Source: a phage | Sequence record: PZ379594.1 | DNA: 52,616 nucleotides | Strand: one strand, 5' to 3' | Shown: positions 4,284-52,460 of the stretch, piece after piece | Layout: each line of letters starts with the position of its first letter | Position numbering within the stretch: the stretch's first letter is position 1 | Notes under the pieces: generated by a model | What the model saw: the letters and a program-made list of their open reading frames with translations, nothing else | Databases searched by the model: none | Told to the model about the DNA's origin: nothing | Position numbers and translations under genes: made by a program

Positions 4284-4311
4284 TCTAACATTAGTTGGAT
4301 GTGAGAGAGAC
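4284..4311 (+). promoter_or_regulatory. conserved promoter-like motif, copy 1 (CTAACATTAGTTGGATGTGAGAGAGA)
   Basis: One of five copies of a ~25-bp motif, all in intergenic DNA upstream of + strand genes; about 70 nt upstream of the 4380 ORF. Confidence 0.5.
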
Positions 4312-4379
4312 AAAGCTATTCCGTGGTTAGCAATGTCACTGTAACTTAAACTGTAATTAACTTAATAGAGAAATTAATC

Positions 4380-4757
4380 ATGGCACAATATAACGATTTA
4401 AACACTGGCATCATTGGTGCAAACGGCTACAAGAAGCAAGACACTCATCCTGATGTTCGTGGCCGCATTAACGTAGAGGGTATCTGGTATTGGGTATCTG
4501 GTTGGACCAAAAAGGCTGGTGACAATGAATTTACTTCATTGGCACTGACCATCATGACTCAGGAACAAGTTGATGAAATGATGCGTAAGCGTGAAGAGAA
4601 AGCTAAAGCCAAAGCTCAACCTCAAGCTGCCGCTCAACAGCAACAGCCACGCCAGCAACCTTCTGCACAACAGCAAGCACCTGTTCAGCAACAGACGCAG
4701 AATAGTAACTACAACCCGAACGAGCCGAAAGACTTCGACGACGACATTCCGTTCTAA
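4380..4757 (+). CDS. small protein with E. coli SSB-like C-terminal tail (Q/P-rich linker ending ...NEPKDFDDDIPF)
   Basis: The last residues DFDDDIPF match the partner-binding tip of enterobacterial SSB as I recall it; the N-terminal ~70 aa could be a compact beta-rich (OB-like) domain. Confidence 0.6.
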   Translation: MAQYNDLNTGIIGANGYKKQDTHPDVRGRINVEGIWYWVSGWTKKAGDNEFTSLALTIMTQEQVDEMMRKREEKAKAKAQPQAAAQQQQPRQQPSAQQQAPVQQQTQNSNYNPNEPKDFDDDIPF

Positions 4758-8219: not shown

Positions 8220-8865
8220 ACATCATTGAAGTTCCTTCCATATCGTCTGGGTAGAAGCCCTGTGCACAAGGGTGGAGTGAAAGGTTCGAGTCCTTCCGAT
8301 TGCGCGAGGGAACTTCAAGATGGAATGTTTCCATCATATACATTTATCTTTTTAACATAGGCCAAAGGGCCGGAATACTTATTCGCAGAAAAGCTATTCA
8401 CTTGTTATAGGCGATGTATTGGGATGAATTGGAACTAAATAAGCAAGCTGTTAGGGCTGAATAATTAGAGGGTTATGCCTCATGCTTATGTTAGTCATTC
8501 GAAAATAGGTTTGTGCCACAAGCTGCTGGTGCTCTGAGGAAGTCGGACAAACAGGGCTTAGAGTGGCATAATCCGCACAAAACCGCGCCACCAGCTATGC
8601 CAAAGCAGGTAGGTTGGGTGAATGTATTGGGAAGGGTTACAAAGCCTCTGTGACCTCCGCAGCTTGCCAGGCTGCGGTGCAGTTATGATACGCAGGTCGC
8701 ACCCTAACGGGAGTAATCCTTCGCCAATGCAGTTATCCAGAATTGACACAAACGGTAGGCAGTGGCCCGATTTTCGGCCTTCCTGCGCTGCCCTGTGGCC
8801 TGTTTCCTGGGCCAAAAGATGAGAAGAGAAGTCACAAACACTGAATCGAAAATTGGAGAGTTCCT

Positions 8866-18140: not shown

Positions 18141-18412
18141 TGCAAACTGTATATTCTATTTTTGATATGCAGGAATCAGAGCACCATATGTTTGCTACCG
18201 ATTCCGAAGTTCCCGCAAAGGACGCTGTAATGGCGTTCCTTGAAAAGATTAAGGACAAAGTATTCTATTCGTCCGACACACAGTCTCAAGCAGTTAACGA
18301 TGAGACATTTAAAAACCTCCGAACTTTAATCTCGGCGACTACTTCAATTGAAGAGCTGTCCGAAGCATTAGTTGGATATGACTTCCGTCTTGCAATGTTG
18401 CAAGTCGATTAA
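18140..18412 (+). CDS. small acidic protein (90 aa)
   Basis: ATG overlaps the polymerase stop (TAATG). Confidence 0.5.
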   Translation: MQTVYSIFDMQESEHHMFATDSEVPAKDAVMAFLEKIKDKVFYSSDTQSQAVNDETFKNLRTLISATTSIEELSEALVGYDFRLAMLQVD

Positions 18413-18440: not shown

Positions 18441-19307
18441 ATGGCATTTGCTGCTCCTACACTGGCCTCGAACAAGACTCCTTCTGCTGCACCATTACTG
18501 GAAGCGGGTGGTTATCCTGCTCGTGTTTGCCGTATTATCGACCTGGGCTTACAGCCTGGTTCTGCTAAATATCCTACCCCGTCCTTGAAACTTCTGGTTA
18601 CTTTCGAACTGCTCGACGAGTACATGAAAGAAGTTGACAGTGAAGGTAAAATGGTCATGGTTCAAGACCCAGACGAAGATGACGGCATTATGATGGCGAA
18701 GAATCTTGAAGACAAGCCGCGTTGGTTTGACTTTGAGTTTACCTATAATGCTGACGGATTCATGGGTGAGAACTCCCACATCTACAAATTCGCTAAGGCG
18801 ATTGATGCACTGGAAGTTAAACCTAATCTGGAACAAGGCATTCAGGGCCATCCTGCCAAGAACCTTCCAGATTGGTTGGGCGAACCTCTGATTGTTGGCA
18901 TTGTTCAATATACCAAGCAGTCAGGTAAGAACGCTGGTCAGGTTGCTAACAAAGTTGCTACCTTCTCTCCGATGAAATCCAAAGAGAAGAAAGAAGCTAA
19001 AGCACTGGTTAACCCGACTGTCTTCTTCGACATGTCTGAGCCGGACCTGGAAGTATTCAACAAACTGCCAGGTGGCGAATCTCCGTATGCAATCAAGAAC
19101 CGTATTACTTCCGGTGTTGATTTCTACAAGACTAAGCTGTCTGCACTGTTAGGCGGTAAACCTGCCGATGAAGGCGCTGTACCGAATCAGGCTTCTGATG
19201 AAGAAGTTGATGCAGCTATGAAAGCTGAACTGGAAGCACAGGCTGCTGCAAAAGCACAGCGTGAAGCGGAAGGTGGTGCTGCTGGCGGTACGGGTATGCC
19301 GTTCTAA
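18441..19307 (+). CDS. highly expressed replication-module protein, possibly the phage ssDNA-binding protein
   Basis: E. coli-optimal codons, AAAGG RBS, strong terminator downstream, acidic C-terminal region ending in ...GMPF; function is inferred from position and tail only. Confidence 0.6.
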   Translation: MAFAAPTLASNKTPSAAPLLEAGGYPARVCRIIDLGLQPGSAKYPTPSLKLLVTFELLDEYMKEVDSEGKMVMVQDPDEDDGIMMAKNLEDKPRWFDFEFTYNADGFMGENSHIYKFAKAIDALEVKPNLEQGIQGHPAKNLPDWLGEPLIVGIVQYTKQSGKNAGQVANKVATFSPMKSKEKKEAKALVNPTVFFDMSEPDLEVFNKLPGGESPYAIKNRITSGVDFYKTKLSALLGGKPADEGAVPNQASDEEVDAAMKAELEAQAAAKAQREAEGGAAGGTGMPF

Positions 19308-52259: not shown

Positions 52260-52460
52260 ATGAATACCATGCAAATCAATCAAATCGAAAACTGTTTCAA
52301 TCCTCATCACACCTGCGACATGAGCAATTTATCTCGTCCTACAGTGGAGGAGACTAAAGACTTCTTAGAATTGTTAGCAGAATATAAGCAAGAATCGCAT
52401 GTACTATTGCACGCATATTTGCACAATTCTGGATTCTTTGATACAGAGATACCGTTCTGA
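52260..52460 (+). CDS. hypothetical protein (66 aa)
   Basis: GGAGAC RBS; followed by a strong terminator. Confidence 0.45.
   Translation: MNTMQINQIENCFNPHHTCDMSNLSRPTVEETKDFLELLAEYKQESHVLLHAYLHNSGFFDTEIPF

Follow-up and report, generated by a model that had tools for sequence, protein, structure and literature searches.

The 125-aa protein gene and its phage

The window, which is the whole 52,616-nt stretch of record PZ379594.1, covers the entire genome of a phiEcoM-GJ1-like myovirus (Chaseviridae, Carltongylesvirus). [quoted passage not shown] A tRNA scan and an Rfam scan of the whole genome were both empty.

At 4380..4757 on the plus strand lies an ATG-initiated coding sequence, stop codon included, for a protein of 125 aa, just as the preliminary description had drawn it. 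The protein ends ...NYNPNEPKDFDDDIPF, an end also given as ...NEPKDFDDDIPF. A weak Shine-Dalgarno-like AGAGA (4367..4371, plus strand) is read from the sequence 8 nt 5' of the ATG, and the Mangalitsa record has a ribosome-binding site annotated at the equivalent place. The gene is located at 4.4 kb, far from the replisome operon at 14-21 kb, and shows 84-91% nucleotide identity across 46 phage genomes. The coliphage gene is also present, at 85.8% nucleotide identity, in PP952070.1, deposited as 'Staphylococcus phage Pel53' (host Staphylococcus hyicus) and of a size typical of Carltongylesvirus; this host label is probably wrong, or else due to contamination.

The gene is not new, because its product is already annotated in databases as an SSB: this is the existing name in GenBank and in PHROGs ('single strand DNA binding protein'). 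The protein matches the profile phrog_7364 over residues 1-89 (E 5.8e-41), where the name of PHROG 7364 is an annotation and not an assayed function.

A probable phage promoter upstream

The promoter-like motif that had been noticed upstream of the gene is a 17-nt element, ACATTAGTTGGATGTGA (extended consensus tctGtAACATTAGTTGGATGTGAaAGAGACAAAG), at 4288..4304 on the plus strand, 76 nt before the ATG. Allowing up to 3 mismatches, the genome holds eight plus-strand copies (at 758, 4288, 8055, 8196, 10179, 18365, 50193 and 52535) against 0.24 expected, and 0 of 100 shuffles reached eight. All eight are intergenic and placed ahead of gene blocks, that of the RNA polymerase gene included, and alignment of the copies (repeat family D1) reveals a purine-rich segment downstream. 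The copy at 18365-18381 stands 59 nt 5' of a gene for a 288-aa protein that bears a tip of its own. No good sigma-70 site was found nearer to the ATG of the 125-aa protein gene than ACATTAGTTGGATGTGA.

The motif is probably the promoter for the T7-like single-subunit RNA polymerase of the phage, and the copy at 4288 probably heads a transcription unit that begins with the 125-aa protein gene. Since the motif has the look of a phage-RNA-polymerase promoter, the gene would belong to the middle (DNA-metabolism) class. The product had been described as a small early protein: small it is, at 125 aa, while its early expression is not established and this putative promoter points to middle expression instead.

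A further stretch, at 8450-8850, lies 3' of two copies of the motif. These ~400 nt are GC-rich (54-56% vs ~40%), hold no convincing ORF, and have an RNA fold z-score of -2.7 with no match in the Rfam or tRNA scans; they may represent a structured non-coding RNA.

Tip and linker

The last eight residues, DFDDDIPF (residues 118-125; 4731..4754, plus strand), form an SSB-Ct-type docking tip, assigned by identity to the E. coli/Salmonella SSB C-terminus. In a phmmer search of PDB sequences they are identical to the enterobacterial SSB end in 7f2n_A (...PPMDFDDDIPF) and 1eqq_A (E. coli SSB), which bears out the tail sequence that the preliminary description gave for the host protein. An exact C-terminal identity of eight residues with the host SSB is far beyond chance. 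In the host cell, the SSB tip docks ExoI, RecQ, PriA, Pol III chi, DnaG and other partners. Across 27 orthologues of the phage protein F119, D120, P124 and F125 never vary and I123 almost never does, and several relatives have in common the longer stretch NEPPMDFDDDIPF.

The tip is preceded by a Q/P/A-rich, intrinsically disordered linker (residues 80-117; 4617..4730, plus strand) with pLDDT values of 50-68, and AlphaFold2 predicts disorder throughout residues 80-125. Its length and sequence differ among orthologues. The linker was likened at the outset to the Q/P-rich linker of SSB, and it does align to the linker of the NCBIfam SSB models: PRK09010 and TIGR00621 match only residues 40-125 of the protein, against the C-terminal linker and tip of the models, with 30 and 23 bits where the cut-offs are 260 and 54. 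Because the SSB models align to linker and tip and not to the N-terminal part, the 'SSB' annotation is, as far as these alignments tell, based solely on tail similarity and the label is weak.

Recent capture of a host ssb tail was considered and rejected: there are 0 nucleotide-level matches in 5,426 E. coli genomes and the tip is ancestral. As the layout is family-wide and the E. coli genomes give no nucleotide match, the tail is an old feature of the family and not a one-off capture.

The folded N-terminal domain

An AlphaFold2 model of the 125-aa protein was built on a 40-sequence family alignment, and its elements were assigned with DSSP. Residues 10-80 have pLDDT values above 90, reaching 96-98 in the core (residues 1-60). 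The folded part comprises residues 1-79 (~79 aa), predicted as four beta-strands and a helix in the order beta-beta-beta-beta-alpha. The core four-stranded beta domain (residues 1-60; 4380..4559, plus strand) has its strands at residues 10-14, 26-32, 35-46 and 49-58, and is followed by the amphipathic helix TQEQVDEMMRKREEKAKAK (residues 61-79; 4560..4616, plus strand; DSSP on the AlphaFold2 model). Only a subfamily has the helix, the profile match stopping short of the helix region in 52 of 149 representatives.

The aligned Chaseviridae orthologues have an extensive set of invariant residues, namely N8, G10, I11, G13, N15, K18, H23-P24-D25 and G28-R29 in the first half of the domain and G34, W36-Y37-W38, S40-G41-W42, K44, F51 and S53-L54-A55 in the second. 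The domain is rich in aromatic residues (7 of 60). The family has a median net charge of +2, and the domain of the 125-aa protein itself a net charge of 0.

Searches with this domain gave little. Pfam returned low-complexity noise only for the 125-aa protein, and PDB sequence searches, run for both the protein and the domain profile, returned only matches to the tail and spurious matches to Kelch and Shiga-toxin proteins. A structure search of the modelled domain against the PDB had no significant match, Foldseek giving none at E<0.1. The best weak structural matches are recurrently PC4-like beta4(-alpha) nucleic-acid binders (MoSub1, with a Foldseek E of about 0.5), and Levivirus coat proteins are also among them. 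OB-fold SSBs are absent from both structure-search lists. A canonical OB-fold SSB is thus ruled out: the domain has ~60-79 aa vs ~112 aa and matches the OB fold neither in sequence nor in structure, which agrees with the original remark that the N-terminal domain is too short for such a fold.

A widespread family with tandem members

Searched with the domain profile, a library of 1.84 billion representatives of 50%-identity clusters yields 1,944 proteins at E<=1e-3, and a second, 90%-identity database yields 1,922 proteins with the domain. These proteins, here called the mini-SSB family, are mostly 77-145 aa long, and their commonest layout is a ~57-aa domain, then a linker, then an acidic xPF end. 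The conserved core reads N-x-G-x-l-x-x-N-x-x-K-x-x-D-x-H-P-D-x-x-G-x-x-x-v-x-G-x-x-Y-W-v-S-G-W-x-K...F-x-S-L. When C-terminal ends were counted among the 149 best representatives, 91 had [IVLM]P[FWY] (31 of them exactly DDDIPF), 14 an acidic and aromatic end, seven an xPF followed by a short extension, and 37 some other end, many of these being xPF/xIF-like variants. Most representatives without [IVLM]P[FWY] either have the acidic and aromatic end or are truncated. The match to P0047 (1,158 aa, 21 stretches) is spurious and repetitive, and was ignored. The tip extension is seen in phiVC8 p31, which ends ...DFDDDIPFMDTYHRQSKLGHCV, and in P0014 and P0015, which end ...IPFAPIGLQEGRRYLHCI: the IPF tip is there followed by a short extension that would mask the free C-terminal Phe, and that could stem from stop-codon loss, sequencing error or regulated read-through.

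The domain is duplicated in tandem in 14 representatives. For P0078, a natural tandem encoded by a VP2/phiVC8-type Vibrio phage, the AlphaFold2 model has pLDDT values above 90 over residues 10-115 and comprises eight strands without a helix, predicted to close into an 8-stranded barrel. Since tandem relatives are predicted as one such barrel, the models suggest that single-domain members form the same 8-stranded barrel as homodimers.

A search of the literature found no biochemical study of the family; its fold class and breadth, its link to DUF736 and the recurrence of xPF ends in several phage proteins, described below, seem not to have been reported in the literature searched.

Relation to DUF736

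Comparison of the 149-member domain alignment with six plasmid DUF736 proteins by hhalign gave a probability of 94.2% (E 1.1e-7) over 44 columns, which correspond to strands 1-4. Against the Pfam DUF736 model (PF05284) relatives of the phage protein score 12-18 bits (E 0.003-0.15), under the gathering threshold of 22.1 bits, in a constant register that places residues ~10-58 on model positions 26-71; the 125-aa protein itself has no match to this model. JGI and NCBI name some family members DUF736, and a Caballeronia plasmid protein so labelled is of the tandem form and ends EDEDIPF. By this profile comparison, the phage domain is distantly homologous to DUF736.

Of the 849 plasmid records with canonical DUF736, 589 are conjugative, and the tip-bearing family is rare on plasmids (5 records). 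Plasmid DUF736 genes were seen near toprim, ParB-like and RepA genes (loci L019 and L022). The plasmid setting of DUF736 fits a possible role in handling ssDNA during transfer.

Gene neighbourhoods

All six distant members sampled are encoded directly downstream of a gene for a single-strand annealing protein (ERF in four, SSAP_Sak in one and Rad52_Rad22 in one), and a YqaJ exonuclease gene is also present at two of the six loci. Operons shared by phage SSBs and annealing proteins are known, and the latter rely on the SSB C-terminal tail (PMC12054835). Two Z-genome phages, phiVC8 and PMBT28, have the homologue among their helicase, PolA (DpoZ), primase and PurZ genes. Judged by gene order, a position beside annealing-protein genes or PolA is the classical phage SSB slot.

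The homologues in these 2-aminoadenine phages are their SSB candidates: phiVC8 p31 (locus L003, 6001-6516), a tandem two-domain form, and the PMBT28 protein (locus L004, 6001-6342). Co-expression of the PMBT28 helicase and 'SSB' raised DpoZ-dependent dZ incorporation (bioRxiv 10.1101/2025.10.22.683976), in an experiment that confounds the helicase with the SSB and does not explicitly name the 'SSB' gene that was cloned.

In the phage studied here, no second Pfam-recognisable SSB was found among the 38 uncharacterised ORFs and the replication genes, and a Pfam scan of the ORFs recognised no annealing-protein gene.

Other xPF-ended proteins of the phage

Among the 71 plus-strand ORFs analysed, four have ends of the type [IVLM]PF, where composition predicts 0.06 (Poisson P about 5e-7), and all four ends are kept in Mangalitsa orthologues of 75-90% identity. 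Besides the 125-aa protein, with its end DFDDDIPF, they belong to proteins of 106 aa (8866..9186), 288 aa (18441..19307) and 66 aa (52260..52460), all on the plus strand. The pattern suggests a shared C-terminal docking code.

The 106-aa protein ends ...QPVYGVPF (IYGVPF in Mangalitsa), has no match in PHROG or Pfam searches and is found mainly in Chaseviridae-type phages.

The 288-aa protein, which ends GGTGMPF after a low-complexity A/E-rich C-terminal linker, is encoded between PolA and the 5'-3' exonuclease; it belongs to phrog_862 and is 'hypothetical' in all records. Its family has a P[FWY] end in 99 of 120 members and an aromatic end in 118 of 120, typically NIPF, AIPF or GMPF. PDB and Pfam searches with the protein had no match. 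Homology to T7 gp2.5 was considered and rejected, at an hhalign probability of 0.1% and with no PDB or Pfam match. The protein may be a second SSB-like or gp2.5-like protein. Since it bears a tip and is encoded in the replisome operon, the role of replisome SSB need not fall to the 125-aa protein, which is not necessarily the sole SSB candidate either. In Pseudomonas phage O4 the orthologue of the 288-aa protein ends DDDIPW and the mini-SSB domain was not found; the latter is therefore not universally required by such replisomes.

The gene for the 66-aa protein, which ends GFFDTEIPF, directly follows the RNA polymerase gene, corresponds to Mangalitsa gp02 and occupies a true early position. 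Its homologues are early genes of N4-like Gamaleyavirus phages (gp1.2, beside the RNAP1 subunit A), with ends TGCPF. A small tip-bearing decoy or adaptor is better sought in the 66-aa protein than in the 125-aa protein.

A candidate minimal SSB and its alternatives

The 125-aa protein is, on balance, probably a functional SSB analogue that uses a far smaller DNA-binding module of another kind. The preliminary description had left the choice between a minimal SSB and a decoy or adaptor; the minimal SSB is better supported, by family layout and SSB-slot neighbourhoods, and positive evidence for a decoy was not found.

In the proposed mechanism, the N-terminal ~60 residues would form a four-stranded beta 'half-barrel', capped here by one helix, which probably pairs with a second copy in the way that tandem relatives are predicted to fold into one 8-stranded barrel. 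ssDNA would be bound via conserved aromatic and basic residues, and the alternation of side chains along the strands marks W36, W38, W42, K44, R29 and F51 as the likely binding face. The disordered Q/P-rich linker would then present DFDDDIPF, the peptide that the host SSB uses for docking its partners. As the tip is identical to that docking peptide, enzymes that dock on the SSB tip would continue to recognise phage ssDNA coated with the protein, whether they are those of the host, the T7-like polymerase and recombination functions of the phage, or both. By analogy with E. coli SSB and T7 gp2.5, the acidic tip probably has a further part in regulating DNA binding, by folding back.

A minimal SSB is supported by the tip, the disordered linker, the family-wide layout, the SSB-slot neighbourhoods, a T7-like replisome in a phage with no other Pfam-recognisable SSB, the aromatic-rich domain with its family median net charge of +2 and, indirectly, the PMBT28 co-expression. 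The putative promoter directly upstream is as expected for a protein needed stoichiometrically. Against it stand the net charge of 0 of the domain, the confounding of helicase and SSB in the PMBT28 experiment, phage O4 with its failure to show a mini-SSB domain, and the 288-aa protein, which could be the true replisome SSB.

The latter possibility is taken furthest in an alternative that we consider unlikely, a recombination-specialised SSB or mediator: an ssDNA binder serving annealing, recombination-dependent replication or concatemers, with the 288-aa protein as the replisome SSB. The tight linkage of the family to ERF, Sak and Rad52 genes is what such a protein would show, and its gene at 4.4 kb does lie apart from the replisome operon, where the 288-aa protein has a family-conserved xPF end, a place next to PolA and its own copy of the promoter motif. 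The phage, however, has no recognisable annealing-protein gene for it to serve; phiVC8 and PMBT28 have no SSB candidate beside PolA other than the homologue, and for the 288-aa protein the probability against gp2.5 is 0.1%, with no PDB or Pfam match.

Still less probable is a decoy or sponge, in which the domain would serve purely as a scaffold for oligomerisation, presenting at least two SSB tips and not binding ssDNA. It would titrate ExoI, RecQ, RecJ, PriA, UDG and chi off the host SSB, and so shut down host repair and replication restart or protect phage DNA ends. A host-identical tip, a domain that is not basic in this protein and a fold that matches none of the established ssDNA-binding folds would suit this scheme; so would a second tip-bearing protein in the replisome operon that could provide the SSB function, and four xPF-ended proteins that suggest deliberate use of a docking code. 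A decoy makes little sense, however, in the annealing/exonuclease modules of the distant members (6/6) or in replication modules, and the conservation of W36, Y37, W38, W42, F51 and the K/R residues exceeds what a scaffold needs. Many members, moreover, are found on temperate-type contigs with integrase or repressor genes.

A tethering adaptor, whose domain binds a phage protein, dsDNA or RNA while the tip brings in a host SSB partner (for example a transcription or replication-initiation cofactor like N4 SSB or Drc), is highly improbable: an unclassified fold, a single-subunit RNA polymerase in the phage and a weak resemblance to PC4-like proteins, among which there are several transcription cofactors, would allow it, but the gene neighbourhoods hold no pointer to transcription and the family occurs in many phages that have no phage RNA polymerase.

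Significance of the proposed minimal SSB

SSB function is so far tied almost entirely to OB folds, with PC4-like proteins, DdrB and ThermoDBP among the few exceptions. With roughly two thousand clusters at 50% identity, a ~60-residue non-OB module joined to the canonical SSB linker and tip would make a major class of SSB that has gone unrecognised, and its members of 77-130 aa would be the smallest proteins known with an SSB-Ct tip. Database labels that rest only on tail similarity would be corrected. Through the homology to DUF736, a gene of the backbone of conjugative plasmids and ICEs would be assigned to ssDNA handling, and DUF736 would gain its first functional hypothesis. If the reading is true, it also suggests that an xPF network of the phage competes for, or redistributes, the pockets normally served by the host SSB; with a host-identical tip and three further xPF-ended proteins, the phage would offer a small experimental system in which to study how host SSB interactions are shared or stolen by a phage. 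The three parts taken jointly, that is a new and widespread class of minimal SSB (a ~57-residue half-barrel, a dimeric or tandem 8-stranded barrel, a linker and an SSB-Ct tip), an ssDNA role for DUF736 and a four-protein xPF network, are proposed tentatively, at somewhat less than an even chance.

SSB-tail compatibility limits the host range of recombineering. Because mini-SSB genes adjoin genes for strand-annealing proteins, these tiny proteins are attractive recombineering partners.

Comparison with known systems

E. coli SSB (PF00436/TIGR00621) and the 125-aa protein have the same layout, a folded N-terminal domain followed by a low-complexity disordered linker and an acidic tip, and they are identical in the last eight residues, DFDDDIPF. 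Members of the mini-SSB family also occupy the SSB slot of phage recombination modules. The folded part is where they differ: the OB domain of canonical SSBs has ~112 aa, whereas the mini-SSB domain has ~60-79 aa and no sequence match to it, and canonical SSB is a tetramer of OB folds where the mini-SSB is likely a dimeric or pseudo-dimeric barrel.

T7 gp2.5 is a phage SSB, as the mini-SSB is a candidate to be, that serves a T7-type replisome (PolA and a gp4-like primase-helicase) and has an acidic, Phe-ended tail. In T7, this acidic tail contacts the polymerase and autoregulates DNA binding. Unlike the 125-aa protein, gp2.5 is a 232-aa OB-fold protein that ends ...EADEDGDF without the host IPF tip, and its gene position is different. 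An acidic aromatic tail of the T7 gp4 type was also considered for the primase-helicase of the phage, and rejected as absent from the sequence.

[quoted passage not shown] PC4-like domains, defined by this topology, occur as homodimers or tandem repeats (PMC7549692). The mini-SSB domain fits the definition in topology, with a structural similarity below significance. PC4-like proteins differ in having neither linker nor SSB tip, there is no sequence-profile link, and they are built from two open sheets with swapped helices, whereas the tandem relative of the mini-SSB is predicted as a closed 8-stranded barrel. Membership of the PC4-like group was considered and not adopted: the recurrent matches are suggestive yet below significance, and the tandem model argues for a closed barrel.

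Canonical DUF736 proteins have ~100 aa, with an extra N-terminal IGxFT... segment and a C-terminal DDPSF...LIWSR segment, and neither a disordered linker nor an xPF tip; in the phage family, linker and tip replace the C-terminal segment. DUF736 sits mostly on conjugative plasmids and ICEs, and what it has in common with the phage family, beyond the four strands, is that both occur on mobile elements whose cycle includes ssDNA stages.
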